Source: Ascidiella aspersa
Taxonomy: Eukaryota
Reading direction: 5' to 3'
Length of the DNA stretch: 64,000 bases
Assembly: GCA_963924565.1 (NCBI GenBank)
Contig: OZ004611.1
Span: 29,512,001 to 29,576,000 of the forward strand
Of this stretch, positions 14,261 to 63,171 are shown in pieces. The notes beneath the pieces were generated by a model. It had not been told where the DNA came from, did not search any database, and saw only the letters and a list, made by a program, of their open reading frames with translations. A program made the translations under genes and the position numbers. Position 1 is the first letter of the stretch; each line of letters opens with the position of its first letter.

Positions 14261-14468
14261 GGAAAGTTTTAGTTTTTTCCCCTTTCTGTAACTCTTTGGC
14301 CTATTCAGTTGTTACTGTAAATTTAACCTGTCCATCTTACGCAGTTGTCTAGTTAAACGATAGGCTTTCCTTTAAAACACGATGCTGTGGATAAAACCTG
14401 AACTTGGAGTAAATATTTTATGTCGTCATTTCACTTTGCGTAAATTAACCTTCTTTGAACATCTGCAG

Positions 14469-14605
14469 TTTGATCCACGGCTTCCTGAGCAAGGCCGACT
14501 GCCAGCGCATGTTGCGCGTGTGTGCCCCCGGCACGTTCATGTTTCGATTCAGCGACACTGTACTCGGAGCGCTGTCCATCTCCTGCTATACGGTTTGCCA
14601 GGACA
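14469..14605 (+). CDS. STAT: STAT-family transcription factor, internal exon (first half of SH2 domain)
   Basis: ctgcag acceptor at 14468 and gtaagt donor at 14606; hand translation LIHGFLSKADCQRMLRVCAPGTFMFRFSDTVLGALSISCYTVCQD matches the STAT SH2 pattern GFxxK...PGTFLLRFSDS..G.I. The ORF track shows a different frame here. Confidence 0.9.
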
Positions 14606-15214
14606 GTAAGTAACCTTTGCCCTAATTTGTATTATTGACATAGAACCCCACTAACGTTTGTGTAAAAATACCAAAAATGCTGTGTACTTTTTCCCATTTA
14701 CTGAACTTATTTTATCTGTTCTTTGCGATATAAAATCTTGCTTGGGCTGAGCGAAAAATAATTTTAATTAAACTTAACTGGAGCTTTTTATACGAACCTT
14801 AAAAAGCAATAATGAAAATGTCCACCTAGAACGAACCCTTTTGTTGAATACCCTTTGGTTAGTGTTTCCCAATCTGTTGGTCGGGAACCAAAATTGGGTT
14901 GCTGTTTGATTTGGTTGGGTCGACAACTGAAGTAGTTTTATATGCTCAGATTTGTAGGGATCAGTCAACAGCCATATTTCCTCAAAATTTGAAAAAATGC
15001 AGGTGAAACACGAAGACACGGCTCAAATAAATTAAATTCGAAATTATTTATGGTATTTGTGTGGTCTGTTTTGCTCACCTATGAAAATTTCAGTGCATAG
15101 AATGGGGTCGCCAAAGCTTTGCTGCTACATTTACGGTTAGCATTCAGGTCGCCGCGAAAAATGGTTGAAAGCCACTTATTTAGTTGGCTAAGTCTCATTG
15201 ATCGACTTTTTTAG

Positions 15215-15423
15215 GTTTCGAAGTGGGACACCTGCAGCCGGACACCATACGGAAATTCCAGCAGCGCAGTCTTCCCGACATGGTCAAGGACATTCAATAC
15301 CTTTACTTCCTTTATCCCAACACGCCAAAGGACCACGCTTTCGGTACCTACTACACGCCAGAACCCAGTAAGACTCAGGGCAATTCATATATGCGTATGG
15401 TTGTGGGTGAAATCTGTAAATGA
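15215..15423 (+). CDS. STAT: STAT-family transcription factor, following (probably last) exon: end of SH2 and tyrosine tail
   Basis: ttttttag acceptor; phase-1 join with the previous exon is in frame; FEVGHLQPDTIRKFQQRSLPDMVKDIQYLYFLYPNTPKDHAFGTYYTPEP matches the STAT5/6-type RSL.D...D...L.YP..PKD.AF..YY.P pattern; TGA at 15421, AATAAA at 15505. Confidence 0.88.
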
Positions 15424-15737
15424 TCGGATCCAATCTGATACTCAAGTGATCATCAGTGCGCCAATATTTGTTAGTTACACATTACGGGTTTATATTTCAA
15501 CTCAAATAAATTTGAAACTAAAACTGTTTATAGACCTAAATAGGCGAACTCCTATACTTCGACAATGCTTAATGGTCAAGTAAACTTTGACTTGAGTCTA
15601 TAAAATGCCGACACAACCAAAATCACTTTTGAAGTACTACAATTCATAATGCTAAAAAATTATATTAGTGTAAACTTACCGATGACGGCATGAGTTTTAA
15701 CGCCGATACCAATTGTCTGCAGAAAACTCTTTTGGGT

Positions 15738-24007: not shown

Positions 24008-24401
24008 ACTGCCGAAGCAAGTACAATCGTTTACCAACTTTTTTCCTTATCAACGACCTCGTCGAAAAACGCCGACTCTTTGCGGAGAAGACCCGAATCG
24101 CCCAGCCAATTGATTTAGATGTGTCACGATGACGTCGGCAAAATTTCAATAACTCCTGGCCAGAAATCAAAGGCCAGCTAAAACGAGAGTCCGACTGCCA
24201 AATTCTCTTTTCAATTCTTTTCCAATTGTAATTCGTCGTGTCGTTTTGTCGAAAATCGCTTCCAAATGCACTCTTTTCGAGAGACGGCAAAATACGTTTT
24301 CGCTTGCCAAATCTTTCCACGGCCAACCAGCAAGTCTTGGGTAAGGCTGAGAGTTGTACTTCTTCCTGACTGACCCCAAACTTTATCGCTTCTCGGCTCT
24401 T
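15738..24401. repeat. 1193-bp U2-U1-U6 array, block 2 (7 intact copies of each gene)
   Basis: Exact match to unit starts at unit position 955 (agacccgaatcg); U2 starts at 16034+1193k; ends in U2 nt 1-17 at 24385-24401. Confidence 0.98.
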
Positions 24402-24573
24402 CAGAGACCTAACATTGGTGGTATACGAGCCTCATCCACGAGTTAACTTTGCAACTTCAATCGGGAAGGCAAAGAGTGAGCCCCTTCAGCTGGCCAAGTT
24501 CCTCGTAAACAGATTATACTTGTTAGGCGAGTTCCCCCGGTTGTCGTGTGGTATCGTAGTCACGTTCCTCGAC

Positions 24574-24760
24574 TTGGAGCCCGACGACTCTCTTTTGAGA
24601 GCGTGAGGCACAGATACTGGTTTGGAGCCCGACGACTCTCTGTTGAGAGCGTGAGGCGTAGATACTGGTTGGAAGCCCGACGACTCTCTGTTGAGAGCGT
24701 GAGGCCTAGTTTTTACTGGTTGGGAGCTCGACGACTATCTGTTGATAGCGTGAGGCACAG
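24574..24760 (+). repeat. 4 x 48-51 bp hairpin repeat in element 5' UTR (copy 2: about 38626-38812)
   Basis: GCCCGACGACTCTCTKTTGAGAGCGTGAGGC-type core recurring at about 24579, 24627, 24675, 24726. Confidence 0.9.
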
Positions 24761-24872
24761 TTTTCGTCCCCCGGTTTTCAGCGGCTCCTACGCGGCCATC
24801 CGCGCGCTCCGCCCCGGGCCTCTTCAGCAGCGGAGCTCCCGGCATTTTTTTGCCGCAGCCCTCACCCGCACT

Positions 24873-25455
24873 CCACCGGAGGTCCCTGCAGTTGCCGGTG
24901 TGCCATCCGGTGTTTGCTGCCCAGCTCTTGGCCTCACCCCACCGGAGGTCCCTGCAACGTTGGCCAGCTCTTCGGCCCTCTACCTCCAGTGTTCGCCGAC
25001 CCCCACCGGAGGTCCCTGCAGTTGCCGGTGTGCCATCCTGTGGTTGCTGCCCAGCTCTTGGCCTCACCCCACCGGAGGTCCCTGCAACGTTGGCCAGCTC
25101 TTCGGCCCTCTACCTCCAGTGTTCGCCGACCCCCACCGGAGGTCCCTGCAGTTGCCGGTCTGCCCTCTAGTGTCCACTGGTCGGCTCTCCACTGTACCCC
25201 ACCGGAGGTCCCTACAACTTCGGCAACTTTGTGGTGCTCTACCACCAGCGTCCAGCTACCCCCACCGGAGGTCCCTGCAACCTTGGACAGCCCAGCGGTC
25301 CTCTAACACCTGCACTCCGCCTCCACCACCGGAGGTCCCTGCACCTGCCCGCTGCTCTTAAGCCTTCACAACCGGAGGCTGTCGCAGCCGCCGGTCTGCC
25401 GTTTGTGCACCAGTTCCCGACCTTCACAACCGGAGGCTCTCGCAGCCGCCGGTCT
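24873..25455 (+). repeat. About 65-bp GC-rich repeat (10 ACCGGAGG cores, alternating 66/64-bp dimer) in element 5' UTR (copy 2: about 38925-39510)
   Basis: ACCGGAGG at 24875, 24941, 25005, 25071, 25135, 25201, 25264, 25328, 25371, 25429. Confidence 0.9.
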
Positions 25456-26059
25456 GTCGTAAGTTGCTGTACCCGCTGAAACCAGCCACCATCTCAACTG
25501 CGCCTCTCCCCACTCCATCTGCTCCCAACCAGCCTCACCGTCTCACCATCCGCTTCCAACCCATCCGCCTCAAAACCAGTTCTACCATCTGTTCCAAACC
25601 AGCCTGCTCATCCATCTGCCTCACCGCCTCACCATCTGCTCCAATCGCGACAACACCACCGAACGTGACTACGATCCACATCCATCTTCACCACACGACA
25701 ACCCACCACCACCTACGAAGAACTTGGCCCATCACCACCAGCAGCCCTTCACCCCTAACTCGCGGATTACACTCTGGATTAATACCATCAAAACACAAAG
25801 GATTATTCCACCTTTCATCGCTCTCAATCATCGCCGGATCCGACACCCTTCCCCCCCTGGTTGGCCCACATCGCCGGTCTCCTTCTAAACAAGTATTTTA
25901 GCATAACCTTCTATCCTTTTTGGCCGAGAAGCACCTAACTTTAATTTAATTTATCATACTCCCCCTCGGTTATATCTTTTAATACCCTCCCCCCCCTGCA
26001 ACTCAAGCAATTTTAATAAGGACTCGCGCCGGCTCTAAATTGTGCTTCCTCGGTCCCTC

Positions 26060-26573
26060 TACCAGTTTTATATCTTACCTTTTTATTATTACATTACATA
26101 CATTTTACTACTACATATTATTACATACGTCTCGCTCTTTTACAATTTTACTGTGCCACGACTACTCGCAGACTTATATTTTACCTTTTTATTATCACAT
26201 ATTATTACATAAATTTTACTATTACATATTATTACACATTATTACATACGTCTCGCTCTTTTACAATTTTACTGTGCCACGACTACTCGCAGACTTATAT
26301 TTTACCTTTTTATTATTACATATTATTACAAACATTTTATTATTACATATTACTACATATTATTACATACATTATATTATTACATATTATTACACATTAT
26401 TACATACGTCTCGCCCTTCTACAATTTTACTGTGCCACGACTACTCGCAGACTTATATTTTACCTTTTTATTATCACATATTATTACATACATTTTACTA
26501 TTACATACTATTACACATTATTACATACGTCTCGCTCTTTTACAATTTTACTGTGCCACGACTATTCGCAGAC
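26060..26573 (+). repeat. AT-rich compound repeat: (TATTACAYAT)n blocks alternating with 4 copies of a ~46-bp core ending TCGCAGACT (copy 2: about 40115-40627)
   Basis: Core CGTCTCGCTCTTTTACAATTTTACTGTGCCACGACTACTCGCAGACT near 26128, 26249, 26407, 26528. Confidence 0.9.
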
Positions 26574-26593
26574 TGTACACCGGTCCCAACGTC

Positions 26594-29500
26594 ATGAACG
26601 TTCAACCACCGCGTCGCAGGCTTCGCCCAGCAGTTCGTTCACGCGCGGATCAGGGGACGGCATCATCCAAACCAACCAAAGATGCCCCATCGCAGGAGGA
26701 AGCCCCACCCTTGTCGGTAACGTTTAGGGGGCCCGGGGATTCCGTGTTTCGGTGCGGGGTTAGTGGCTGTTCTATGGTCTCGGCAGCGCTCCAATCAGTC
26801 AAGCGCCATTTGGCATCTGTACATGGCTTGGCTGTTGGAGTGCTGGACGCGGCCTGTGGGAAGTGTTCCGCTTCCTTCAGGTCGCGTGGCTCCCTCATTA
26901 ACGTGAGGGACCATTACCGTGCCTGTGGAGCAGTCGCCCCCGCCGCTGCACCGCGGACTCCTCGGGCCTTTTGCTGCCCAGTCTGCGATAGTCGCTGGCC
27001 GTCTCTCGTAGCTGCCAAGTCCCACCATTACCAAAAGCACCCGGGCGGGCCGTCACGCAATAACAACAGCTTTGTGGTGGCCCCCGGTCTGTTATCACCT
27101 CGGCGTAGCATTAAACAACGCCCCTTTACTCTGAACGTGCGCTACGTCGACGCGGCTACCACCTATAAATGCCCCGTGCCGGCTTGCCCGAAAGGTAATG
27201 ACGGATACGCTAGAGTCCGAACATTAAAAACCCACCTCAGTACTTGTCACAAAATTAATAACGTCTTACTTAGGGTAGTATGTGGCAAGTGCGAGTGCGT
27301 CGTCGCCGACAAGGCTATGTCCTTATTGCCCGCCTCTTCGCACTTTAAATCATGTTCTGGCTCTGGCAAACCCCCGAGCATCCCGGTGCCCATACTCCCA
27401 CCCTCGCCCGCGAACCACTCTGTTGGGGAGGACTCTGATAGTTCTACAGTTGGCAAGGTCCCTTCGCTGATCTTCTATCAGTCGAAGGCTTCGATAAATA
27501 CCACCCCGCCCTCGGACAGTGAGTTTTTGTATGGCCACGTCTCTCCCCCAAGTGGGAGTTCTCACTGTTCTTCAGTAACGCTAATTTCCCCCATCGCTAC
27601 GGTTGCGCCGGTGTTGTCGTACGCCGATGCAGTCCGTACGCCATCTCCAAAGCTGTCACAGATAGATCTAGTTACCCCACCAAACCTACCAACCGTGGGC
27701 ATTCAGAATTCCTTTTCGGCAGAGTGCGTCGACCCTTACCAGCCTTCCGAGGTTTCGAGCGTCATCAACGCGACCTCACCATCTGGTCCCCCTTCGTTCA
27801 CGCTCCTTAGGAGCTGGCTAAACACTCCTTGCACCGGGAGTACCAGGCGCGTTCCGGTAGAGATCCCGCAGATCTCTCCTTCTCGCCTCGCTCGACTGGC
27901 AGTTACAATTAGGGATCACTATCGTTCAAGGGTTAACGTCGCCACGGGGGTCTCGCCTGATCCGAAGCCACCGAAAGCGAGCGTGTTTCTCTCTGGAGAA
28001 ACACCTGGCCGCGAAGTGGTGAAAGTGAAGGAGGGGCCGCCAGTTCAAGGAGGGTGGACGGATCGTCCGACACAGCAACTTCTTGTGTCGAACCTTCTTT
28101 CTGCCGGAGAACTGGACCAGGCTACATCACCTCCCGAGGTGGTGGAGCCGTGCGTTGCCGAGGCTACCGTTGCGGGAGCGGGGGAGGTGTCGGCGGCAGG
28201 GAACTGCCCGTCGCCTGAACCCGTTCCGGGCGCGCCAGAGCGACCGGCCGTGAAGACCAGGTGTGAATGGGAGGCCTTGTTGCCGAGCAGTCCGCCTGTG
28301 TCCGATCAGGTCCCAGTACCCGTGGTTGGAGACGTGTCCCACCGAAGTCCTGTTGCAAGCTCTGAAAATGCGTCAAGCTCATTGCCTGTTAGATGTAACG
28401 TTAACGACCCACCTTTAACCGACCCCAGTAATGACGACTTGAGAGCTCGCCTTGCGCATGTAATTGACGCCCATTCTTCCCCCGATAGTTTCGGCGAGCT
28501 CGAGCACGCATTAGAGGAGTGGACCAAACTCGCTGGCTCTGTAGACATTACGCGTAAGCAGCGCAAGCCTCGATACAACCGCGGTGCTCAGCACCGTGCG
28601 ACCACCAACCGCGAGCGCGGCCACCCCAACAAGACAACCATACCAATAAAGGGGGCGGCCGCCAAAGGGCAGTGCTTGCGCTCAGCGTTCTGGCGAGACC
28701 AGCGAGCTACGGTTCGCCGCATCACGGACGGGTTAAAAGGGGAGGTCAAATGTGGGATAGCTCCTCGAGTCATCGAGGAGAAGTTTCGCGCCGACCTTAA
28801 GGCACCGGGGGCGTACGAGCATCTCGAGCCGGTACCAAGCTGGATGCGAGCCACGACGGGAGGGGGAGATGCGTCATCGGGGGCTTCTGGCGGTGTGGAC
28901 TCTGCTCCAATATCTCCGCGCGAGGTGGAGATGGTTCTCCAGTCCGTTAACACTGCTTCGGCGGCAGGATCTGACGGGTTGTCCTATGGCTTTTGGAAGG
29001 CTCTAGATCCCAAGGGCATCGTCCTTGCGGAGCTTTTCGAGAGGTGTAGGATCGCTCGTCGGATTCCCGCGCAGTGGCGTAAGTCGAAAGTCACTCTGAT
29101 CTGCAAGGATCCGGGCGGCGACCTCGACGACGTCTCGAACTGGAGACCCATTTCCATCTGTCGCAACTTGTACAAGTTGTACGCGGCGGTGTTGGCGCGG
29201 CGTTTGCAGCGCTGGGCGCTCGACGGTGGCGTTATTTCTCCTGAACAGAAGGGTTTCATGCCAGTGGAAGGAACGTTCGAGCATGTTTTCGTGTTGGACT
29301 CAGCCTGGGTAGATGCACGACAGGCGAAGAAGGACATCTTCGTCGCCTGGCTCGACGTCAAGAACGCCTTCGGCAGTATCCGTCACGATTGTATTCGTAG
29401 CATAATGGACGAGCTTCAGGTTCCTGACTACTTGATTGAGTGCGTTGCTGATATCTACGTTGGTAACACGTGTGTCGTTCGCACGGCGGGTGGTGTTACC

Positions 29501-31309
29501 AACGAGATACCAGTAGGGCGAGGGGTACGCCAAGGCTGCCCCTTGTCCGGCCTCGTATTCAATCTGGTGGCCGAGGTTCTTGTTAGAGGGGTCAAAGCTC
29601 GCGCCGGTTGCGGATACAGATTCGATTGCGCTCCTAATGTCTTTTCCCAAGTGCTGGCATACGCTGACGACGGGTGTCTCATCTCGAGCTCGAGGTCACA
29701 GATGTGCGAGCAGCTGAAAGTGTGTGAGGAGTTCGCCGGCTGGGCAGGTATCCGTTTTAACCCGAAAAAATGCCGCATAATGAACCAGGTGCTGGTTGGA
29801 AGTCGCCGACAACGGGATCCGCAGCCTTTCTCGCTCTCGGGCGAGGAGGTCAAGGTGATTGGTCTGGGCGAATTCTACCGCTACTTGGGAGTGCGGCAGG
29901 GATACCTTCCTGACACTCGATCGAACACCACCCTCGAGTTGTCTGCCGAGCGAATCAAGCGACTCTTTGAGTCGCCCCTCACGCCACACCAGAAGCTGCT
30001 GGCACTGAAGCGATTCGAGCTCCCCCGTCTGAGCTTCATCTTGAGGTTGCGGCATTTTCCGGTAAAGGAGTTGAGGAAGGTGGACTCTACGGTGCGGCGT
30101 TGCGTGCGCATTTCACTCCGCCTCCCAACACGAACGTGCGTGGCTTTTTACCACACGTCAGCAGACAGCGGAGGCCTGGGGATCCCGTCGATTGCCGCCG
30201 AGGGCGACATACTGGCGGTGACACAGGCCTTCAAAATGCTGACAGCACCGGACTGGCGGGTGCGCGCCGTGGCCGTGGGTCGACTCGAATCTCTCTCGAA
30301 ACGGATGGCCAAAGCTGAAAGTGTCGATGCCGGTGCGATGGCAGCTTTCATATCAGGGGGCAACGTCAGTGGTAACGGGTGCGGAGCGGGCGGAAGTCTG
30401 GAACGAGACTTGTTTACGTTTGTACGCAAGGCCTCGGAAAGGATCGATGTTCAATTCGTCGCGGGCGCTGACGGGCAGTTTTCTGTGACGTCTGGTGACA
30501 AGACGTTATCCCCCAGCAACCGGGCAGTATTTACCAGGACCCTCCACGCCTTACAATCAAAGCGTTGGAGGGAAGTGTGGGCCAGTCATCCAGACCAAGG
30601 TAAGACCGTAGGGGCCCACACCCAATACGGTTATTCGAACCACTGGTTGAAGAACCCCGGGGCTCTGACTATTCCAGAGCGCATTTTCGCGATGAAAGCA
30701 CGCCTCAACCTCCTTCCTGTCAAGAAGGTTCGGGAACGATTTCACGGGGGACAGTCAGACGTTAGGTGCTGCAGATGCGGCAGTTCGGCCGAGACACTTC
30801 CCCACGTACTCAACCACTGTGTTCCCGTCATGCCCCAAATCCTATCTCGGCACGACGCCATACAGGGGGAAGTGTTGCGCCACGTACCTTCAGGGACCTT
30901 CACCAAGGTTTCTTGTGACCGAGTTTGCCGGGAGCACGCCGATGCCACGGGTGAGAACCTCCGGCCAGACTTGATTGTCGAGAGCGCCGACAGGTTCTTA
31001 GTCGTGGACTTTGCGTGCCCTTTCGAAAACGGCCAAGTTGCCCTTACCGCTGCTGCGGCCCGTAAGCACCAAAAGTACAGGGAGTTGTGTGGAAACTTGG
31101 CCCGTGTTTCCAAGAAGCGAGTCCTTTTCCACACCTTCATCATCGGCTCCCTGGGCAGCTATGCTCAAGGCAACAATTCCACCCTCAGCGCCTTGGGCAT
31201 CACGGGCCGTCGTATGACGGAGGTAGCCAGAGCATGCTCAGCTCTGGCTATCAAGGGTAGCCACCACGTGTGGCAATCTTGGTGCAGGGGGATTGTTACC
31301 AAACCTTAA
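26594..31309 (+). CDS. Retrotransposon polyprotein: N-terminal zinc fingers, reverse transcriptase, CCHC knuckle, restriction-like endonuclease (1571 aa from first ATG)
   Basis: SAAGSDGL, NWRPISI, QKGF, WLDVKNAFGSI, GVRQGCPLS, LAYADD; CRCGSSAETLPHVLNHC; RHD; RPDLIV..VVDFACPFE..KHQKY. The track start at 26432 is a GTG inside the AT-rich repeat; first ATG is 26594. Confidence 0.95.
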   Translation: MNVQPPRRRLRPAVRSRADQGTASSKPTKDAPSQEEAPPLSVTFRGPGDSVFRCGVSGCSMVSAALQSVKRHLASVHGLAVGVLDAACGKCSASFRSRGSLINVRDHYRACGAVAPAAAPRTPRAFCCPVCDSRWPSLVAAKSHHYQKHPGGPSRNNNSFVVAPGLLSPRRSIKQRPFTLNVRYVDAATTYKCPVPACPKGNDGYARVRTLKTHLSTCHKINNVLLRVVCGKCECVVADKAMSLLPASSHFKSCSGSGKPPSIPVPILPPSPANHSVGEDSDSSTVGKVPSLIFYQSKASINTTPPSDSEFLYGHVSPPSGSSHCSSVTLISPIATVAPVLSYADAVRTPSPKLSQIDLVTPPNLPTVGIQNSFSAECVDPYQPSEVSSVINATSPSGPPSFTLLRSWLNTPCTGSTRRVPVEIPQISPSRLARLAVTIRDHYRSRVNVATGVSPDPKPPKASVFLSGETPGREVVKVKEGPPVQGGWTDRPTQQLLVSNLLSAGELDQATSPPEVVEPCVAEATVAGAGEVSAAGNCPSPEPVPGAPERPAVKTRCEWEALLPSSPPVSDQVPVPVVGDVSHRSPVASSENASSSLPVRCNVNDPPLTDPSNDDLRARLAHVIDAHSSPDSFGELEHALEEWTKLAGSVDITRKQRKPRYNRGAQHRATTNRERGHPNKTTIPIKGAAAKGQCLRSAFWRDQRATVRRITDGLKGEVKCGIAPRVIEEKFRADLKAPGAYEHLEPVPSWMRATTGGGDASSGASGGVDSAPISPREVEMVLQSVNTASAAGSDGLSYGFWKALDPKGIVLAELFERCRIARRIPAQWRKSKVTLICKDPGGDLDDVSNWRPISICRNLYKLYAAVLARRLQRWALDGGVISPEQKGFMPVEGTFEHVFVLDSAWVDARQAKKDIFVAWLDVKNAFGSIRHDCIRSIMDELQVPDYLIECVADIYVGNTCVVRTAGGVTNEIPVGRGVRQGCPLSGLVFNLVAEVLVRGVKARAGCGYRFDCAPNVFSQVLAYADDGCLISSSRSQMCEQLKVCEEFAGWAGIRFNPKKCRIMNQVLVGSRRQRDPQPFSLSGEEVKVIGLGEFYRYLGVRQGYLPDTRSNTTLELSAERIKRLFESPLTPHQKLLALKRFELPRLSFILRLRHFPVKELRKVDSTVRRCVRISLRLPTRTCVAFYHTSADSGGLGIPSIAAEGDILAVTQAFKMLTAPDWRVRAVAVGRLESLSKRMAKAESVDAGAMAAFISGGNVSGNGCGAGGSLERDLFTFVRKASERIDVQFVAGADGQFSVTSGDKTLSPSNRAVFTRTLHALQSKRWREVWASHPDQGKTVGAHTQYGYSNHWLKNPGALTIPERIFAMKARLNLLPVKKVRERFHGGQSDVRCCRCGSSAETLPHVLNHCVPVMPQILSRHDAIQGEVLRHVPSGTFTKVSCDRVCREHADATGENLRPDLIVESADRFLVVDFACPFENGQVALTAAAARKHQKYRELCGNLARVSKKRVLFHTFIIGSLGSYAQGNNSTLSALGITGRRMTEVARACSALAIKGSHHVWQSWCRGIVTKP

Positions 31310-32511
31310 ACCATCCTTTGCAAGCGCAGACTGGCACCACACAAACACAAACCGGACGATCACGGCGGCGGGGCATCAACTTAACCGCAAATAAACCAGC
31401 TCACCAGTACGTTCATCAATCAGCCAACAACCCAGCCCACTCACCACCCCATCACCTCGGAAAACTTCAGCCCTTTGACCCCAGCTCTATCCACGCCCCG
31501 CCGCCAACCCCTCCTCGCACTCCAATGTTAAAGCTGGCCTCCTCCAATCAAAACCCACTCCTGATAGTTTCGCCGAGGTGCTCCCAACTCTTCAACCGCG
31601 CGGCAGCCGGGGACCAACTCTCCAAACACTTTAACGTTCCAACGTTCGTCTATCGTCCCCGGCCAACACCTTCAACAGTTCCGCCCGCCACACCAGTCGA
31701 ATCATCGTCAACGGCAAAAGGGCGGATGCCGCGCGGTCAACACCTCACCTCTTCACACCAATGGGGCCGGCTAGGAAGCCTGCCCCCGAACTGTCTGGCA
31801 CCAACACTGGAGCACCTCGGCCCCCCAACCAACACGGAGGCCAGCAGGCCGGCGCACGTCGCCGACCCACTAATTCGCACCATCCCCACCCGGTTTGCAC
31901 AACACTTAGCTTTTAAATCTTTTTTTTTGTCTTAGGTAGCTCGTTTTTAACCGCTTTACCGCCCCAAAATTGCACTTACTAGCAATTAAAGCACTTACCG
32001 CACTTAAACCTCTTTCAAGTTTTAAATGCACCCCCCCTTTTTTTATATATATGCAAAGTTCCGAACTATTTTTTATATTTACATTGTTTTTAAATATTTT
32101 TATACCCACACCCCGTGTACTTTTTTCGCCACCCTCACCCCTTTCCACTCACTAGGCACACTTCCAAAATATGTATCTAAATTACACAATACCATACCCG
32201 AGCCCAGTCTGCGCCAGTCCCTCTGTTCCTCCTGCGACGTCTCCTGCAAGCCCTACCATCGGCGGGCCCCACAATTCACTTAGCTTATAACTTAACTAAT
32301 CTGGCCCTAACTTTTTTAAATTTACCTTTTTTTTCCACAGTAATCATCAAATCTTAACCAAACCAAACCCACAAATTCTATCACCCATCGCCGTTACGGC
32401 GGTGGAGGCCGAGCGTGCAACGCACAATACTTATTGCCGGCGAAGCCTGTTTATATTGTCGTTTTCGTGTTTTATCGCCGTCAACACAATAAACCGGTGT
32501 ACAGTCAAAAG

Positions 32512-32661
32512 TCTGTTCTTCTCAGTTTAATACCTGGGACGCAAGCGATTCGCTTGCTCTTTGTATTAACCTGATTTTTGGACAGGGAGCACGGTGCCGA
32601 AGCTTGCTTCGCCCTGCTCACGGGTTGTCCTGGTATTGCAGTACCTCCAGGCACGGCCCAC
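32512..32661 (+). pseudogene. U2: 3' remnant (nt 41 to end) of U2 disrupted by element copy 1
   Basis: U2 resumes at TCTGTTCTTCTCAG directly after element end GTCAAAAG. Confidence 0.93.
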
Positions 32662-33247
32662 ATTCCCACACTGTGGGAATTCCTCTTCATCCAATTGAAA
32701 ATTTGCTTCTTGTTTTGAAAAAAAGAAGCAAAACATAAATCGATTTTTCGAGCGAAAATTGAAAAGAAAAATGGTGACCGATCGGCCAAAAATGACAAAT
32801 TTTGTTCCTACAAGTTGATGCGGGGGGCTTATGGGGTAGCTATCCACAAAGAGTACGGGCGAGTAGTCGAGTAGGGCCTCGGGAAAAATCGTCACAACTC
32901 ATACTTACCTGACGGGGGTCTTTAACCGTGATCACGTAGGCGGTTGGCCCAAGGCGAGGCCTTGCCATTGCACTTCGGCTTGGCTGACCCTTGCGATTAC
33001 CCCAAATGCGGGTAACTCGGCCGTATAATTTCTGTTAGCGGGGTGTGCGTTCGCGCAAAACCCCATACAAACCTTAATCAGTTCTGAAAAAGCTTGGAAA
33101 CGGCAAGAGCCGGTCGTAGCTGCAAAACGCTGAAAGAGCAGGAGGAAATTTTCGGGGGGCGTCTTCCGAGTAGCGTCGGCAGAATCGAGTAAAATGTCAA
33201 AATAAGGAACGCTTCACGATTTTGCGTGTCATCCTTGCGCAGGGGCC

Positions 33248-38059: not shown

Positions 38060-38453
38060 ACTGCCGAAGCAAGTACAATCGTTTACCAACTTTTTTCCTT
38101 ATCAACGACCTCGTCGAAAAACGCCGACTCTTTGCGGAGAAGACCCGAATCGCCCAGCCAATTGATTTAGATGTGTCACGATGACGTCGGCAAAATTTCA
38201 ATAACTCCTGGCCAGAAATCAAAGGCCAGCTAAAACGAGAGTCCGACTGCCAAATTCTCTTTTCAATTCTTTTCCAATTGTAATTCGTCGTGTCGTTTTG
38301 TCGAAAATCGCTTCCAAATGCACTCTTTTCGAGAGACGGCAAAATACGTTTTCGCTTGCCAAATCTTTCCACGGCCAACCAGCAAGTCTTGGGTAAGGCT
38401 GAGAGTTGTACTTCTTCCTGACTGACCCCAAACTTTATCGCTTCTCGGCTCTT
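32512..38453. repeat. 1193-bp U2-U1-U6 array, block 3 (4 intact U2, 5 U1, 5 U6)
   Basis: U2 starts at 33665, 34858, 36051, 37244; interrupted U2 at 38437. Confidence 0.98.
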
Positions 38454-41400
38454 CAGAGACCTAACATTGGTGGTATACGAGCCTCATCCACGAGTTAACT
38501 TTGCATCTTCAATCGGGAAGGCAAAGAGTGAGCCCCTTCAGCTGGCCAAGTTCCTCGTAAACAGACTATACTTGTTAGGCGAGTTCCCCCGGTTGTCGTG
38601 TGGTATCGTAGTCACGTTCCTCGACTTGGAGCCCGACGACTCTCTTTTGAGAGCGTGAGGCACAGATACTGGTTTGGAGCCCGACGACTCTCTGTTGAGA
38701 GCGTGAGGCGTAGATACTGGTTGGAAGCCCGACGACTCTCTGTTGAGAGCGTGAGGCCTAGTTTTTACTGGTTGGGAGCTCGACGACTATCTGTTGATAG
38801 CGTGAGGCACAGTTTTCGTCCCCCGGTTTTCAGCGGCTCCTACGCGGCCATCCGCGCGCTCCGCCCCGGGCCTCTTCAGCAGCGGAGCTCCCGGCATTTC
38901 TTTGCCGCAGCCCTCACCCGCACTCCACCGGAGGTCCCTGCAGTTGCCGGTGTGCCATCCGGTGTTTGCTGCCCAGCTCTTGGCCTCACCCCACCGGAGG
39001 TCCCTGCAACGTTGGCCAGCTCTTCGGCCCTCTACCTCCAGTGTTCGCCGACCCCCACCGGAGGTCTCTGCAGTTGCCGGTGTGCCATCCTGTGGTTGCT
39101 GCCCAGCTCTTGGCCTCACCCCACCGGAGGTCCCTGCAACGTTGGCCAGCTCTTCGGCCCTCTACCTCCAGTGTTCGCCGACCCCCACCGGAGGTCCCTG
39201 CAGTTGCCGGTCTGCCCTCTAGTGTCCACTGGTCGGCTCTCCACTGTACCCCACCGGAGGTCCCTACAACTTCGGCAACTTTGTGGTGCTCTACCACCAG
39301 CGTCCAGCTACCCCCACCGGAGGTCCCTGCAACCTTGGACAGCCCAGCGGTCCTCTAACAACACCTGCACTCCGCCTCCACCACCGGAGGTCCCTGCACC
39401 TGCCCGCTGCTCTTAAGCCTTCACAACCGGAGGCTGTCGCAGCCGCCGGTCTGCCGTTTGTGCACCAGTTCCCGACCTTCACAACCGGAGGCTCTCGCAG
39501 CCGCCGGTCTGTCGTAAGTTGCTGTACCCGCTGAAACCAGCCACCACCTCAACTGCGCCTCTCCCCACTCCATCTGCTCCCAACCAGCCTCACCGTCTCA
39601 CCATCCGCTTCCAACCCATCCGCCTCAAAACCAGTTCTACCATCTGTTCCAAACCAGCCTGCCCATCCATCTGCCTCACCGCCTCACCATCTGCTCCAAT
39701 CTCGACAACACCACCGAACGTGACTACGATCCACATCCATCTTCACCACACGACAACCCACTACCACCTACGAAGAACTTGGCCCATCACCACCAGCAGC
39801 CCTTCACCCCTAACTCGCGGATTACACTCTGGATTAATACCACCAAAACACAAAGGATTATTCCACCTTTCATCGCTCTCAATCATCGCCGGATCCGACA
39901 CCCTTCCCCCCCTGGTTGGCCCACATCGCCGGTCTCCTTCTAAACAAGTATTTTAGCATAACCTTCTATCCTTTTTGGCCGAGAAGCACCTAACTTTAAT
40001 TTAATTTATCATACTCCCCCTTGGTTATATCTTTTAATACCCTCCCCCCCTGCAACTCAAGCAATTTTAATAAGGACTCGCGCCGGCTCTAAATTGTGCT
40101 TCCTCGGTCCCTCTACCAGTTTTATATCTTACCTTTTTATTATTACATTACATACATTTTACTACTACATATTATTACATATTATTACACACGTCTCGCT
40201 CTTTTACAATTTTACTGTGCCACGACTACTCGCAGACTTATATTTTACCTTTTTATTATCACATATTATTACATAAATTTTACTATTACATATTATTACA
40301 CATTATTACATACGTCTCGCTCTTTTACAATTTTACTGTGCCACGACTACTCGCAGACTTATATTTTACCTTTTTATTATTAAATATTATTACAAACATT
40401 TTATTATTACATATTATTACATACATTATATTATTACATATTATTACACATTATTACATACGTCTCGCCCTTCTACAATTTTACTGTGCCACGACTACTC
40501 GCAGACTTATATTTTACCTTTTTATTATCACATATTATTACATACATTTTACTATTACATACTATTACACATTATTACATACGTCTCGCTCTTTTACAAT
40601 TTTACTGTGCCACGACTATTCGCAGACTGTACACCGGTCCCAACGTCATGAACGTTCAACCACCGCGTCGCAGGCTTCGCCCAGCAGTTCGTTCACGCGC
40701 GGATCAGGGGACGGCATCATCCAAACCAACCAAAGATGCCCCATCGCAGGAGGAAGCCCCACCCTTGTCGGTAACGTTTAGGGGGCCCGGGGATTCCGTG
40801 TTTCGGTGCGGGGTTAGTGGCTGTTCTATGGTCTCGGCAGCGCTCCAATCAGTCAAGCGCCATTTGGCATCTGTACATGGCTTGGCTGTTGGAGTGCTGG
40901 ACGCGGCCTGTGGGAAGTGTTCCGCTTCCTTCAGGTCGCGTGGCTCCCTCATTAACGTGAGGGACCATTACCGTGCCTGTGGAGCAGTCGCCCCCGCCGC
41001 TGCACCGCGGACTCCTCGGGCCTTTTGCTGCCCAGTCTGCGATAGTCGCTGGCCGTCTCTCGTAGCTGCCAAGTCCCACCATTACCAAAAGCACCCGGGC
41101 GGGCCGTCACGCAATAACAACAGCTTTGTGGTGGCCCCCGGTCTGTTATCACCTCGGCGTAGCATTAAACAACGCCCCTTTACTCTGAACGTGCGCTACG
41201 TCGACGCGGCTACCACCTATAAATGCCCCGTGCCGGCTTGCCCGAAAGGTAATGACGGATACGCTAGAGTCCGAACATTAAAAACCCACCTCAGTACTTG
41301 TCACAAAATTAATAACGTCTTACTTAGGGTAGTATGTGGCAAGTGCGAGTGCGTCGTCGCCGACAAGGCTATGTCCTTATTGCCCGCCTCTTCGCACTTT

Positions 41401-44400
41401 AAATCATGTTCTGGCTCTGGCAAACCCCCGAGCATCCCGGTGCCCATACTCCCACCCTCGCCCGCGAACCACTCTGTTGGGGAGGACTCTGATAGTTCTA
41501 CAGTTGGCAAGGTCCCTTCGCTGATCTTCTATCAGTCGAAGGCTTCGATAAATACCACCCCGCCCTCGGACAGTGAGTTTTTGTATGGCCACGTCTCTCC
41601 CCCAAGTGGGAGTTCTCACTGTTCTTCAGTAACGCTAATTTCCCCCATCGCTACGGTTGCGCCGGTGTTGTCGTACGCCGATGCAGTCCGTACGCCATCT
41701 CCAAAGCTGTCACAGATAGATCTAGTTACCCCACCAAACCTACCAACCGTGGGCATTCAGAATTCCTTTTCGGCAGAGTGCGTCGACCCTTACCAGCCTT
41801 CCGAGGTTTCGAGCGTCATCAACGCGACCTCACCATCTGGTCCCCCTTCGTTCACGCTCCTTAGGAGCTGGCTAAACACTCCTTGCACCGGGAGTACCAG
41901 GCGCGTTCCGGTAGAGATCCCGCAGATCTCTCCTTCTCGCCTCGCTCGACTGGCAGTTACAATTAGGGATCACTATCGTTCAAGGGTTAACGTCGCCACG
42001 GGGGTCTCGCCTGATCCGAAGCCACCGAAAGCGAGCGTGTTTCTCTCTGGAGAAACACCTGGCCGCGAAGTGGTGAAAGTGAAGGAGGGGCCGCCAGTTC
42101 AAGGAGGGTGGACGGATCGTCCGACACAGCAACTTCTTGTGTCGAACCTTCTTTCTGCCGGAGAACTGGACCAGGCTACATCACCTCCCGAGGTGGTGGA
42201 GCCGTGCGTTGCCGAGGCTACCGTTGCGGGAGCGGGGGAGGTGTCGGCGGCAGGGAACTGCCCGTCGCCTGAACCCGTTCCGGGCGCGCCAGAGCGACCG
42301 GCCGTGAAGACCAGGTGTGAATGGGAGGCCTTGTTGCCGAGCAGTCCGCCTGTGTCCGATCAGGTCCCAGTACCCGTGGTTGGAGACGTGTCCCACCGAA
42401 GTCCTGTTGCAAGCTCTGAAAATGCGTCAAGCTCATTGCCTGTTAGATGTAACGTTAACGACCCACCTTTAACCGACCCCAGTAATGACGACTTGAGAGC
42501 TCGCCTTGCGCATGTAATTGACGCCCATTCTTCCCCCGATAGTTTCGGCGAGCTCGAGCACGCATTAGAGGAGTGGACCAAACTCGCTGGCTCTGTAGAC
42601 ATTACGCGTAAGCAGCGCAAGCCTCGATACAACCGCGGTGCTCAGCACCGTGCGACCACCAACCGCGAGCGCGGCCACCCCAACAAGACAACCATACCAG
42701 TAAAGGGGGCGGCCGCCAAAGGGCAGTGCTTGCGCTCAGCGTTCTGGCGAGACCAGCGAGCTACGGTTCGCCGCATCACGGACGGGTTAAAAGGGGAGGT
42801 CAAATGTGGGATAGCTCCTCGAGTCATCGAGGAGAAGTTTCGCGCCGACCTTAAGGCACCGGGGGCGTACGAGCATCTCGAGCCGGTACCAAGCTGGATG
42901 CGAGCCACGACGGGAGGGGGAGATGCGTCATCGGGGGCTTCTGGCGGTGTAGACTCTGCTCCAATATCTCCGCACGAGGTGGAGATGGTTCTCCAGTCCG
43001 TTAACACTGCTTCGGCGGCAGGATCCGACGGGTTGTCCTATGGCTTTTGGAGGGCTCTAGATCCCAGGGGCATCGTCCTTGCGGAGCTTTTCGAGAGGTG
43101 TAGGATCGCTCGTCGGATTCCCGCGCAGTGGCGTAAGTCGAAAGTCACTCTGATCTGCAAGGATCCGGGCGGCGACCTCGACGACGTCTCGAACTGGAGA
43201 CCCATTTCCATCTGTCGCAACTTGTACAAGTTGTACGCGGCGGTGTTGGCGCGGCGTTTGCAGCGCTGGGCGCTCGACGGTGGCGTTATTTCTCCTGAAC
43301 AGAAGGGTTTCATGCCAGTGGAAGGAACGTTCGAGCATGTTTTCGTGTTGGACTCAGCCTGGGTAGATGCACGACAGGCGAAGAAGAACATCTTCGTCGC
43401 CTGGCTCGACGTCAAGAACGCCTTCGGCAGTATCCGTCACGATTGTATTCGTAGCATAATGGACGAGCTTCAAGTTCCTGACTACTTGATTGAGTGCGTT
43501 GCTGATATCTACGTTGGTAACACGTGTGTCGTTCGCACGGCGGGTGGTGTTACCAACGAGATACCAGTAGGGCGAGGGGTACGCCAAGGCTGCCCCTTGT
43601 CCGGCCTCGTATTCAATCTGGTGGCCGAGGTTCTTGTTAGAGGGGTCAAAGCTCGCGCCGGTTGCGGATACAGATTCGATTGCGCTCCTAATGTCTTTTC
43701 CCAAGTGCTGGCATACGCTGACGACGGGTGTCTCATCTCGAGCTCGAGGTCACAGATGTGCGAGCAGCTGAAAGTGTGTGAGGAGTTCGCCGGCTGGGCA
43801 GGTATCCGTTTTAACCCGAAAAAATGCCGCATAATGAACCAGGTGCTGGTTGGAAGTCGCCGACAACGGGATCCGCAGCCTTTCTCGCTCTCGGGCGAGG
43901 AGGTCAAGGTGATTGGTCTGGGCGAATTCTACCGCTACTTGGGAGTGCGGCAGGGATACCTTCCTGACACTCGATCGAACACCACCCTCGAGTTGTCTGC
44001 CGAGCGAATCAAGCGACTCTTTGAGTCGCCCCTCACGCCACACCAGAAGCTGCTGGCACTGAAGCGATTCGAGCTCCCCCGTCTGAGCTTCATCTTGAGG
44101 TTGCGGCATTTTCCGGTAAAGGAGTTGAGGAAGGTGGACTCTACGGTGCGGCGTTGCGTGCGCATTTCACTCCGCCTCCCAACACGAACGTGCGTGGCTT
44201 TTTACCACACGTCAGCAGACAGCGGAGGCCTGGGGATCCCGTCGATTGCCGCCGAGGGCGACATACTGGCGGTGACACAGGCCTTCAAAATGCTGACAGC
44301 ACCGGACTGGCGGGTGCGCGCCGTGGCCGTGGGTCGACTCGAATCTCTCTCGAAACGGATGGCCAAAGCTGAAAGTGTCGATGCCGGTGCGATGGCAGCT

Positions 44401-46559
44401 TTCATATCAGGGGGCAACGTCAGTGGTAACGGGTGCGGAGCGGGCGGAAGTCTGGAACGAGACTTGTTTACGTTTGTACGCAAGGCCTCGGAAAGGATCG
44501 ATGTTCAATTCGTCGCGGGCGCTGACGGGCAGTTTTCTGTGACGTCTGGTGACAAGACGTTATCCCCCAGCAACCGGGCAGTATTTACCAGGACCCTCCA
44601 CGCCTTACAATCAAAGCGTTGGAGGGAAGTGTGGGCCAGTCATCCAGACCAAGGTAAGACCGTAGGGGCCCACACCCAATACGGTTATTCGAACCACTGG
44701 TTGAAGAACCCCGGGGCTCTGACTATTCCAGAGCGCATTTTCGCGATGAAAGCACGCCTCAACCTCCTTCCTGTCAAGAAGGTTCGGGAACGATTTCACG
44801 GGGGACAGTCAGACGTTAGGTGCTGCAGATGCGGCAGTTCGGCCGAGACACTTCCCCACGTACTCAACCACTGTGTTCCCGTCATGCCCCAAATCCTATC
44901 TCGGCACGACGCCATACAGGGGGAAGTGTTGCGCCACGTACCTTCAGGGACCTTCACCAAGGTTTCTTGTGACCGAGTTTGCCGGGAGCACGCCGATGCC
45001 ACGGGTGAGAACCTCCGGCCAGACTTGATTGTCGAGAGCGCCGACAGGTTCTTAGTCGTGGACTTTGCGTGCCCTTTCGAAAACGGCCAAGTTGCCCTTA
45101 CCGCTGCTGCGGCCCGTAAGCACCAAAAGTACAGGGAGTTGTGTGGAAACTTGGCCCGTGTTTCCAAGAAGCGAGTCCTTTTCCACACCTTCATCATCGG
45201 CTCCCTGGGCAGCTATGCTCAAGGCAACAATTCCACCCTCAGCGCCTTGGGCATCACGGGCCGTCGTATGACGGAGGTAGCCAGAGCATGCTCAGCTCTG
45301 GCTATCAAGGGTAGCCACCACGTGTGGCAATCTTGGTGCAGGGGGATTGTTACCAAACCTTAAACCATCCTTTGCAAGCGCAGACTGGCACCACACAAAC
45401 ACAAACCGGACGATCACGGCGGCGGGGCATCAACTTAACCGCAAATAAACCAGCTCACCAGTACGTTCATCAATCAGCCAACAACCCAGCCCACTCACCC
45501 CATCACCTCGGAAAACTTCAGCCCTTTGACCCCAGCTCTATCCACGCCCCGCCGCCAACCCCTCCTCGCACTCCAATGTTAAAGCTGGCCTCCTCCAATC
45601 AAAACCCACTCCTGATAGTTTCGCCGAGGTGCTCCCAACTCTTCAACCGCGCGGCAGCCGGGGACCAACTCTCCAAACACTTTAACGTTCCAACGTTCGT
45701 CTATCGTCCCCGGCCAACACCTTCAACAGTTCCGCCCGCCACACCAGTCGAATCATCGTCAACGGCAAAAGGGCGGATGCCGCGCGGTCAACACCTCACC
45801 TCTTCACACCAATGGGGCCGGCTAGGAAGCCTGCCCCCGAACTGTCTGGCACCAACACTGGAGCACCTCGGCCCCCCAACCCACACGGAGGCCAGCAGGC
45901 CGGCGCACGTCGCCGACCCACTAATTCGCACCATCCCCACCCGGTTTGCACAACACTTAGCTTTTAAATCTCTTTTTTTGTCTTAGGTAGCTCGTTTTTA
46001 ACCGCTTTACCGCCCCAAAATTGCACTTACTAGCAATTAAAGCACTTACCGCACTTAAACCTCTTTCAAGTTTTAAATGCACCCCCCCTTTTTTTATATA
46101 TGCAAAGTTCCGAACTATTTTTTATATTTACATTGTTTTTAAATATTTTTATACCCACACCCCGTGTACTTTTTTCGCCACCCTCACCCCTTTCCACTCA
46201 CTAGGCACACTTCCAAAATATGTATCTAAATTACACAATACCATACCCGAGCCCAGTCTGCGCCAGTCCCTCTGTTCCTCCTGCGACGTCTCCTGCAAGC
46301 CCTACCATCGGCGGGCCCCACAATTCACTTAGCTTATAACTTAACTAATCTGGCCCTAACTTTTTTAAATTTACCTTTTTTTCCACAGTAATCATCAAAT
46401 CTTAACCAAACCAAACCCACAAATTCTATCACCCATCGCCGTTACGGCGGTGGAGGCCGAGCGTGCAACGCACAATACTTATTGCCGGCGAAGCCTGTTT
46501 ATATTGTCGTTTTCGTGTTTTATCGCCGTCAACACAATAAACCGGTGTACAGTCAAAAG
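38454..46559 (+). mobile_element. Full-length U2-specific non-LTR retrotransposon (Utopia-like), copy 2, 8106 bp
   Basis: Same 5' and 3' junctions in U2 as copy 1; near-identical sequence with scattered substitutions and small indels. Confidence 0.95.
40648..45363 (+). CDS. Retrotransposon polyprotein (ZF-RT-CCHC-RLE), copy 2, intact
   Basis: Same motifs as copy 1; five amino-acid differences visible in the track (I/V, R/H, K/R, K/R, D/N). Confidence 0.95.
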   Translation: MNVQPPRRRLRPAVRSRADQGTASSKPTKDAPSQEEAPPLSVTFRGPGDSVFRCGVSGCSMVSAALQSVKRHLASVHGLAVGVLDAACGKCSASFRSRGSLINVRDHYRACGAVAPAAAPRTPRAFCCPVCDSRWPSLVAAKSHHYQKHPGGPSRNNNSFVVAPGLLSPRRSIKQRPFTLNVRYVDAATTYKCPVPACPKGNDGYARVRTLKTHLSTCHKINNVLLRVVCGKCECVVADKAMSLLPASSHFKSCSGSGKPPSIPVPILPPSPANHSVGEDSDSSTVGKVPSLIFYQSKASINTTPPSDSEFLYGHVSPPSGSSHCSSVTLISPIATVAPVLSYADAVRTPSPKLSQIDLVTPPNLPTVGIQNSFSAECVDPYQPSEVSSVINATSPSGPPSFTLLRSWLNTPCTGSTRRVPVEIPQISPSRLARLAVTIRDHYRSRVNVATGVSPDPKPPKASVFLSGETPGREVVKVKEGPPVQGGWTDRPTQQLLVSNLLSAGELDQATSPPEVVEPCVAEATVAGAGEVSAAGNCPSPEPVPGAPERPAVKTRCEWEALLPSSPPVSDQVPVPVVGDVSHRSPVASSENASSSLPVRCNVNDPPLTDPSNDDLRARLAHVIDAHSSPDSFGELEHALEEWTKLAGSVDITRKQRKPRYNRGAQHRATTNRERGHPNKTTIPVKGAAAKGQCLRSAFWRDQRATVRRITDGLKGEVKCGIAPRVIEEKFRADLKAPGAYEHLEPVPSWMRATTGGGDASSGASGGVDSAPISPHEVEMVLQSVNTASAAGSDGLSYGFWRALDPRGIVLAELFERCRIARRIPAQWRKSKVTLICKDPGGDLDDVSNWRPISICRNLYKLYAAVLARRLQRWALDGGVISPEQKGFMPVEGTFEHVFVLDSAWVDARQAKKNIFVAWLDVKNAFGSIRHDCIRSIMDELQVPDYLIECVADIYVGNTCVVRTAGGVTNEIPVGRGVRQGCPLSGLVFNLVAEVLVRGVKARAGCGYRFDCAPNVFSQVLAYADDGCLISSSRSQMCEQLKVCEEFAGWAGIRFNPKKCRIMNQVLVGSRRQRDPQPFSLSGEEVKVIGLGEFYRYLGVRQGYLPDTRSNTTLELSAERIKRLFESPLTPHQKLLALKRFELPRLSFILRLRHFPVKELRKVDSTVRRCVRISLRLPTRTCVAFYHTSADSGGLGIPSIAAEGDILAVTQAFKMLTAPDWRVRAVAVGRLESLSKRMAKAESVDAGAMAAFISGGNVSGNGCGAGGSLERDLFTFVRKASERIDVQFVAGADGQFSVTSGDKTLSPSNRAVFTRTLHALQSKRWREVWASHPDQGKTVGAHTQYGYSNHWLKNPGALTIPERIFAMKARLNLLPVKKVRERFHGGQSDVRCCRCGSSAETLPHVLNHCVPVMPQILSRHDAIQGEVLRHVPSGTFTKVSCDRVCREHADATGENLRPDLIVESADRFLVVDFACPFENGQVALTAAAARKHQKYRELCGNLARVSKKRVLFHTFIIGSLGSYAQGNNSTLSALGITGRRMTEVARACSALAIKGSHHVWQSWCRGIVTKP

Positions 46560-63000: not shown

Positions 63001-63171
63001 TAATCATCAAATCTTAACCAAACCAAACCCACAAATTCTATCACCCATCGCCGTTACGGCGGTGGAGGCCGAGCGTGCAACGCACAATACTTATTGCCGG
63101 CGAAGCCTGTTTATATTGTCGTTTTCGTGTTTTATCGCCGTCAACACAATAAACCGGTGTACAGTCAAAAA
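60098..63171 (+). mobile_element. 5'-truncated copy (3.07 kb) of the U2-specific retrotransposon, copy 3
   Basis: Starts inside the RT domain; 3' end GTCAAAAA joined to U2 TCTGTTCTT at the same site as copies 1 and 2. Confidence 0.95.
60100..61971 (+). pseudogene. Partial retrotransposon ORF (C-terminal RT half, CCHC, RLE)
   Basis: Retains GVRQGCPLS, YADD and the endonuclease but lacks zinc fingers and the LDVKNAF motif. Confidence 0.9.

Follow-up and report, generated by a model that had tools for sequence, protein, structure and literature searches.

Just upstream of the start codon of a retrotransposon lodged in a U2 snRNA gene of Ascidiella aspersa lies an AT-rich array of TAYTACAY motifs punctuated by four TCGCAG sites. 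An earlier note had taken this microsatellite to act by pairing with U2, and splicing to be needed in order to make the RNA of the element translatable. The locus therefore raises two questions: whether the array pairs with U2 in any meaningful way, and how the transcript of an snRNA gene is turned into the protein of such an element. Both were addressed in the window, i.e., the whole stretch of 64,000 nt analyzed here. As regards Utopia-type elements, no paper on the second question was found in our search, most subscription papers lying outside its range, and the main text of the founding paper is silent on this point, the words "promoter" and "translation" having no occurrence in it (PMC4640811).

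The host snRNA array and the inserted element

The window carries a tandem array of U2, U1, and U6 genes with a repeat unit of 1,193 bp, in which the U6 genes are on the reverse strand; the units compared are 99.8–100% alike. One of the U2 genes contains a full-length Utopia-type non-LTR retrotransposon of 8,127 nt (24385–32511, forward strand, as are all the features of the element given below). A second full-length copy (38437–46559) is 99.4% identical to the first, and a third, 5'-truncated copy (60098–63170) has no leader. Two further full-length copies and a broken one, called here variant B, come after the end of the window. A diverged, broken relative, the C1 sister, is present on contig C1 of the same genome.

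Several other observations were made on the array and the assembly. In two array units, a break occurs at almost identical positions, about 27–30 nt into U1 (window position 60098 and G000:C5:29596525, i.e., window-relative 84525), one unit being joined to the truncated element and the other to unrelated DNA; chance, a fragile site, and another U1-aimed element are possible readings. The snRNA array also contains, next to a 100-N gap, 1.5 kb of what looks like a single-copy gene with two exons (14262–15737), which we take to be STAT-like; an assembly join is the likely reason. The small contigs G000:C11 and G000:C12 carry intron-less bacterial-type ATP synthase genes and are probably bacterial DNA in the assembly.

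The element starts at U2 +1, directly behind an intact U2 upstream region, with a U2-like head corresponding to U2 nt 1–22 (24385–24406) and showing one change common to all the copies. The U2 sequence GTGTAGTA, which had been placed just left of the insertion site, is indeed found there in the empty target, but U2 nt 23–40 are absent at all five inserted 5' junctions seen. At the other end, the 3' remnant of the U2 gene (32512–32666) resumes, on comparison with the array, at host nt 41, which is human nt 39, the Utopia site (PMC4640811). This 3' junction (TCTGTTCTT) recurs in the five array copies having a 3' end, in the C1 sister, and in L071, a distant relative with 52% amino acid identity and an unrelated leader of 968 nt.

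A single ORF of 1,571 aa (26594–31309) shows N-terminal zinc-finger-like motifs, a reverse transcriptase (RT) domain (RVT_1, residues 847–1082, the sole domain found with Pfam), a CCHC-like motif, and a PD..D endonuclease motif. CxxC..H..H/C, YADD, and RPD..D motifs were present in a pattern search, and the domain order is that of Utopia, with no APE. The nearest named relatives of the ORF are Clavelina proteins (47–48% across the RT-endonuclease part). In a quick RT tree of 53 rows, which did not include the Repbase Utopia, YURE, and NeSL references and from which three of 55 matches had been dropped as too short, the element falls in a seven-row clade with the Clavelina proteins (SH-aLRT 99), nested in a group of 44 rows which also includes RNase H-bearing proteins of oomycetes (84).

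Utopia elements are U2 snRNA gene-targeting non-LTR retrotransposons of the NeSL clade, with a restriction-like endonuclease (RLE) (Kojima and Jurka, 2015; PMC4640811). The present element has in common with them a single ORF with N-terminal zinc fingers, RT, a zinc finger, and a restriction-like endonuclease, a 3' junction located, in human numbering, at U2 nt 39, with loss of target sequence on the 5' side, and an AATAAA near the 3' end, as in several families (PMC4640811, S1 Fig). It differs in its host, since Table 1 of that paper lists no tunicate, in its own U2-like first 22 nt, in its leader of 2.2 kb, which is free of ATG and shows a predicted rod and nested repeats, and in a 14-nt complement between the 5' and 3' parts of the element. 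Judged by its sequence, the element is an intact and new ascidian member of Utopia. Assignment to the YURE elements (YURECi, YURE-2_Cis, and YURE_CSa) was considered and rejected. These also have ascidian hosts, belong to the same clade group, and are linked to U2-derived repeats, the C. savignyi U2_sat being close to the U2 of the present host (PMC4640811, S1 Fig); however, their U2-flanked copies join U2 about 20 nt further downstream and most of their copies are not flanked by U2 at all (PMC4640811). Neither this weak specificity nor the downstream junction was found here, the canonical Utopia site being used in all five array copies, the C1 sister, and L071.

The repeat array and related leaders

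The array is a four-unit minisatellite (26068–26571; units of 105, 121, 158, and 121 nt) in which an AT-rich repeat of 10 nt is nested, and each unit ends with TCGCAG. Exactly 18 TAYTACAY motifs were counted in 26080–26593, in line with the number of about 18 announced previously. Since the 10-nt unit was multiplied inside the four larger units (105–158 nt), where it is present three, four, seven, and four times, the 18 motifs are not independent and are worth about one event. They consist of 13 TATTACAT, three TATTACAC, and two TACTACAT; the exact U2 complement TACTACAC is not among them and was met with once among the 73 motifs of the four full-length copies. These copies are more than 99% alike and have 17–19 motifs each (17 in the array of the second copy, 40122–40625), and one of them shows TCGTAG in unit 3. 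The array is element-specific: of the 28 matches which a 17-nt tandem form of the motif gave in the genome, 27 lie inside copies of the element; the background of the motif itself amounts to 28 in 116 kb of other host DNA, counting both strands. The array is likely to be a young repeat that grew by replication slippage and unit duplication.

A 127-codon open stretch upstream of the ATG was rejected as a coding sequence: it is of low complexity, and its length differs between copies (88 codons in the second). In run X3, a contig ends at window position 26021 with a loose end which is, by eye, the reverse complement of the start of a C1-type ORF, and this points to a rearranged copy joining C1-type coding sequence to the array region.

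The array occupies a slot between two conserved anchors, a block on the upstream side and a 14-mer on the downstream side. This slot measures 505 nt here versus 134 nt, with no motif, in the C1 sister, where TCGCAG is not kept and a single TAYTACAY occurs further upstream, outside the slot. In variant B, the ~65 nt preceding the ATG are retained, including one TCGCAG, and the slot is filled by an unrelated repeat of ~310 nt with no motif. Among the 24 metagenome loci, eight were scanned for the motif, three of which hold a leader end, and none of the eight has any TAYTACAY; 11 weak matches (23–33%) were left out of the leader analysis. The three metagenome leader ends carry other short repeats, and the leaders of the distant relatives L071, L081, and L069 have 10-nt repeats of their own before the ATG. 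The earlier note proposed looking for the motif in related elements. The sister leaders lack the array, which is an outcome that the note itself had named as refuting. Since both sisters in the same genome and the metagenome copies are broken, they are weaker as evidence.

Proposed pairing of the array with U2 snRNA

All 18 motifs are able to pair 8/8 with U2 33–40 through Watson-Crick or G-U pairs. The description of the motif as an exact U2 complement with G-U-compatible variants is thus right about the variants, but not about the exact form. The best duplex between the array and U2 28–46 reaches −9.6 kcal/mol, as compared with a mean of −12.7 kcal/mol for local dinucleotide shuffles, and 100 shuffles out of 100 pair with this segment as strongly as the array or more strongly. 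Among the 126 circular 10-mers of the same composition, seven pair 8/8 with U2 33–40, 20 match some splice-relevant snRNA window, and 40 match some U1, U2, or U6 window. The shuffles and the seven 8/8 units give weight to the caveat, already made in the earlier note, that a short AT-rich match may be due to chance.

In a productive branch helix with U2 GUAGUA, one A is bulged out (yUnAy), and the branch site is usually located about 18–40 nt before the AG. In the Ciona TnI gene, the branch site lies 18 nt before the AG (PMC3074122). The TAYTACAY motif pairs flush with U2 over 8 bp, without any bulged branch A; CTRAY and YTRAY are both absent from 26080–26593; and the nearest TAYTACAY ends 45 nt before each AG, outside the usual branch distance. 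A separate yTnAy (TTTAC) is present 22–30 nt upstream of the AGs. The motif therefore does not qualify as a U2-type branch site. The shuffles that pair equally well, the flush helix, and the 45-nt distance indicate a coincidence with the wrong geometry for branching, and this coincidence, recognized post hoc, is a modest one (chance of about 0.06–0.3). Since the array sits in a Utopia leader and is absent from sister elements, the U2 match is probably due to chance; that it is incidental to the array is very likely. Pairing that is no better than in shuffles, shows no bulged A, and is missing from the sister leaders speaks against the idea that the microsatellite acts through U2.

The motifs might also tether the element RNA or RNP to U2 snRNA or the U2 snRNP through many weak 8-bp helices, the effects of which could add up. 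The fact that 18/18 motifs pair 8/8, while only seven of the 126 units of the same composition do so, would be in keeping with such a tether. However, the commonest variant (13/18), with two G-U pairs, is also the weakest (−8.0 versus −12.1 kcal/mol for the exact match), all the sister leaders examined lack the array, and what the element needs is the U2 gene, i.e., DNA, which the zinc fingers of its protein would be expected to find. Target DNA is found in this way in the R2 group, by the zinc fingers of the element protein. We regard the tether as highly improbable.

An ATG-free leader and likely translation without splicing

The 5' leader (24385–26593; 2,209 nt) contains no ATG in any of the four full-length copies, as against 11.4 expected from the local dinucleotide and 23.2 from the mononucleotide composition. 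None of 1,000 shuffles reaches zero, and ATG is the most depleted of the 64 triplets. It is not depleted on the opposite strand of the leader (48) or in the 3' UTR (6 versus 6.3 expected). The part before the donor-like site discussed below has none versus 3.9–10.5 expected, and the supposed intron alone has none versus 7.2–8.1 expected. The 968-nt leader of L071 is also ATG-free (10.4–13.7 expected), and decayed leaders are not wholly so (two ATGs in variant B, one in L081, and four in L069). The repeats in the present leader lower the independence of its ATG test. Sense-strand loss of ATG over the whole leader is what would be expected under selection for scanning, whereas a stretch that is always removed need not show it. 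Since the leader is ATG-free throughout its 2,209 nt, supposed intron included, the RNA is likely to be translatable without splicing, contrary to the view that splicing is needed for this purpose.

The explanation that we favor, with a probability of roughly 0.55, is that the array is a tandem repeat in a leader slot of variable length, that its match to U2 is due to chance, and that the RNA is translated by cap-dependent scanning without being spliced. The host U2 promoter would start a capped Pol II transcript at U2 +1, and read-through would carry it as far as the AATAAA at the end of the element. A single RNA, left unspliced, would then be mRNA and template alike, scanning from the cap would reach the ORF without a splice, and the leader slot would tolerate any repeat making no AUG. 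The earlier suggestion of an snRNA-promoter transcript with a 2.2-kb leader agrees well with an element inserted in U2, the RNA of which would have the same start as U2 itself. Through the U2-like first 17–22 nt, the cDNA would be able to anneal to the target, and the 5' junctions would thus come out uniform, as modelled in the case of R2 (PMC3774820).

R2 RNA carrying upstream 28S sequence (Eickbush et al., 2013; PMC3774820) offers several parallels: co-transcription from the promoter of the host gene, which would hold here too, a target-like 5' sequence carrying substitutions, and uniform 5' junctions explained by cDNA-target annealing. It differs in that R2 is derived from a Pol I RNA cut by an HDV-like ribozyme (PMC3774820), whereas here the Pol II snRNA start would set the 5' end. 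No ribozyme or other Rfam family was detected in the leader at E ≤ 1, and twister- and hammerhead-like readings of short leader motifs, made by eye, were dropped.

Predicted folding of the leader and its ends

The leader contains a long imperfect inverted repeat, the 5' arm (24416–24784) and 3' arm (25473–25740) of which are predicted to form a rod spanning the first 1.35 kb. The predicted arm duplex reaches −219.8, as compared with −133 ± 7.5 for shuffles, and comprises 15 nested helices, including two perfect ones of 14–15 bp (0.003 expected). The inverted repeat is modular, each 48-bp repeat having a complement in the C-rich arm as well as a local hairpin, and gave no Rfam match. Predicted folding amounts to −0.39 kcal/mol per nt upstream of 25740 versus −0.08 downstream. 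A strand preference of the rod was rejected: the sense mismatches lean towards A-C (29 versus 3 G-U), but composition-controlled strands fold equally far above shuffles.

The predicted rod speaks against unspliced scanning: so strong a structure would hinder plain scanning, and a donor-like site lies 9 nt before its 3' arm. The rod might be avoided by ribosome shunting, or by internal entry in 25741–26593, an AU-rich and unstructured stretch, the array being the landing pad. R2-group elements are known for unusual initiation, and a weakly folded AU-rich stretch precedes the ATG both here and in relatives. This mechanism leaves the absence of ATG from the rod region unexplained, however, and the leader gave no Rfam match at E ≤ 1; we consider it very unlikely.

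The 3' terminus of the element (32488–32511) consists of AATAAA, a 14-nt sequence (32493–32506), and a short A run at the junction. The 14-nt sequence is the perfect complement of another just before the ATG (26571–26584), a match reached by none of 2,000 shuffles, and no other piece is conserved at the two ends of the C1 sister (L044:9867 and L045:3685). Since the C5 and C1 copies of the pair are identical, there is no covariation supporting the pairing. The complement is not kept in L071, where the best duplex reaches −11.3 and 19% of 500 shuffles are as strong. It could serve to circularize the RNA or to mask the region of the start codon, or it may be an inverted end that was captured.

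Candidate splice signals and SL-type genes

Most of the splice signals listed in the earlier note are present. The donor-like GTAAGT (25459–25464) is the only GTAAG in the leader, and the AGs of the four TCGCAG sites, which end at 26171, 26292, 26450, and 26571, are the only AGs in 26080–26593, with 22 nt between the last one and the ATG at 26594. The pyrimidine tract said to precede TCGCAG exists in the form of a U-rich tract, but it lies 22–45 nt upstream of each AG, and the 17 nt adjoining the AG are GC-rich. These 17 nt contain 4–5 T versus 7–12 in 8/8 host acceptors (a small set, not RNA-defined: six by homology to bacterial-type ATP synthase alpha and two by eye in the STAT-like fragment) and 10 pyrimidines versus 9–13 in the eight host introns. 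Upstream of the array there is another candidate, not listed in the earlier note, an acceptor-like site with a pyrimidine tract and CAG (26034–26065), which corresponds to a tract and TAG in the C1 sister; going by sequence features, this site is better than the TCGCAG sites and is conserved. Acceptor-like TAG sites are repeated in variant B too, and CTAAC-like motifs precede an AAG in the C1 sister.

The two acceptor-like sites of the element that most resemble host acceptors are in the 3' UTR (31886–31935 and 32291–32340), with 11–12 T out of 17 and, in one case, CTAAC; the second is about 150 nt before the AATAAA. They might aid terminal-exon definition. No copies starting at these sites were found among 11 matches.

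The host has predicted SL-type genes, arranged in 584-bp tandem units with a 16-nt exon, GTAAG, a hairpin, and a U-run. The SL-exon/donor pattern gave 355 genome matches versus 0 in the case of the reversed control, and the Rfam SL1 model found nothing in the genome or in any control. Trans-splicing is therefore possible in this host, as had been supposed. The SL-type gene array (G000:C3:5.22–5.45 Mb) is interrupted every few units by gaps of 8–9 kb with RT frames of ~1,180–1,220 aa, likely to be an SL-targeting non-LTR family. L071 is flanked by SL-gene-like sequences (L071:2664 and 9626).

In Ciona, there are on average three to four trans-splice acceptors per gene, which favor 5' UTRs and an AU-rich context; the first functional acceptor is preferred, in an AU/GU-rich context, and weak donors accompany trans-splicing (PMC11155486). 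The donor, the conserved 26065 acceptor, and these habits of Ciona acceptors make some splicing of the element RNA plausible, whatever the array does, and we hold SL trans- or cis-splicing to be possible at less than even odds. The leader resembles Ciona SL trans-spliced genes in having an AU-rich region with AGs upstream of the ATG in an SL-type host; it differs in its T-poor candidate acceptors, its ATG-free upstream region, and its length (2.2 kb versus a median outron of 458 bp) (PMC11155486; PMC3074122).

Retrocopies and RNA were searched for traces of splicing. None of the 22 genome places with the post-AG 13-mer (six ORF starts, seven 3' ends, and nine unrelated) is an SL- or donor-joined retrocopy. 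This lack of spliced retrocopies stands for few events, since the four full-length copies hardly differ from each other and recombination of the array may have multiplied them. One RNA run with the same species label, sampled at 7,793,684 records (~6% of the run) and without a positive control, gave 13 reads on the element, none of them 99% or more alike, with no joints and zero coverage of 26241–26786. The contig sets X3–X5, of unspecified kind, showed no splice-like joint.

SL trans-splicing at AG 26065 or at TCGCAG would add the 16-nt leader and discard the folded front, the array providing a generic AU-rich context and the unspliced RNA serving as the template. The SL-type gene array of the host, the acceptor-like site kept in the C1 sister, the position of the rod upstream of 25740 with weak predicted folding downstream, and the preference of Ciona acceptors for 5' UTRs, first sites, and AU/GU-rich contexts (PMC11155486) are all consistent with this process. 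On the other hand, two unrelated leaders have no ATG in the would-be outron, although a stretch that is always discarded could well contain some; the surroundings of the four AGs are poor in T; the last 150 nt before the ATG contain no YAG in 3/3 distant leaders; no SL-headed retrocopy was found at the 22 places; and a full GTAAGT upstream should compete, as it is weak donors that go with trans-splicing (PMC11155486). We consider SL trans-splicing unlikely.

If the RNA were cis-spliced from 25459 to an AG further downstream, the 3' arm of the rod would be lost, and a folded template would thereby become an mRNA open to scanning, with an ATG-free first exon of 1,074 nt. The location of the donor 9 nt before the 3' arm speaks for this, as does variant B, from which the donor is missing along with most of the 3' arm. 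Moreover, all three distant leaders (L071, L081, and L069) have a conserved donor-like AAGTAAGT ~640–740 nt before the ATG, with an AATAAA ~120 nt downstream of it in two copies. However, a cis-spliced RNA would retain its two ends and should give rise to new copies, and yet 4/4 donor-bearing copies run through the donor unspliced; the intron is ATG-free, the distant leaders have no conserved acceptor after the donor, and the stretch from the donor to the array contains eight YAGs. These points make cis-splicing quite unlikely. The GTAAGT could bind U1 without any splicing instead. U1 binding is a means of protecting transcripts from early 3'-end formation.

Implications for Utopia-type elements

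The unspliced RNA translated by scanning is still our preferred explanation, and the U2-complementary microsatellite is probably a case of ordinary repeat turnover in a permissive leader. It is also conceivable, if unlikely, that two RNAs arise from the U2 promoter: an unspliced, rod-folded template, the start region of which pairs with the 3' end, and a spliced, rod-opened mRNA, which might be formed in cis from 25459 or by SL trans-splicing at 26065 or at the repeated AGs. If this were true, a single-ORF non-LTR element would show a retrovirus-like split between template and message, using the snRNA whose gene it destroys. Three features deserve further attention: the U2-like head, the 14-nt complement between the end of the element and its start region, and the lack of ATG in kilobase leaders of two unrelated sequences. 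As the family is intact and multi-copy and is hosted by an ascidian, a group in which electroporation is routine, the question of how Utopia elements are translated becomes testable.
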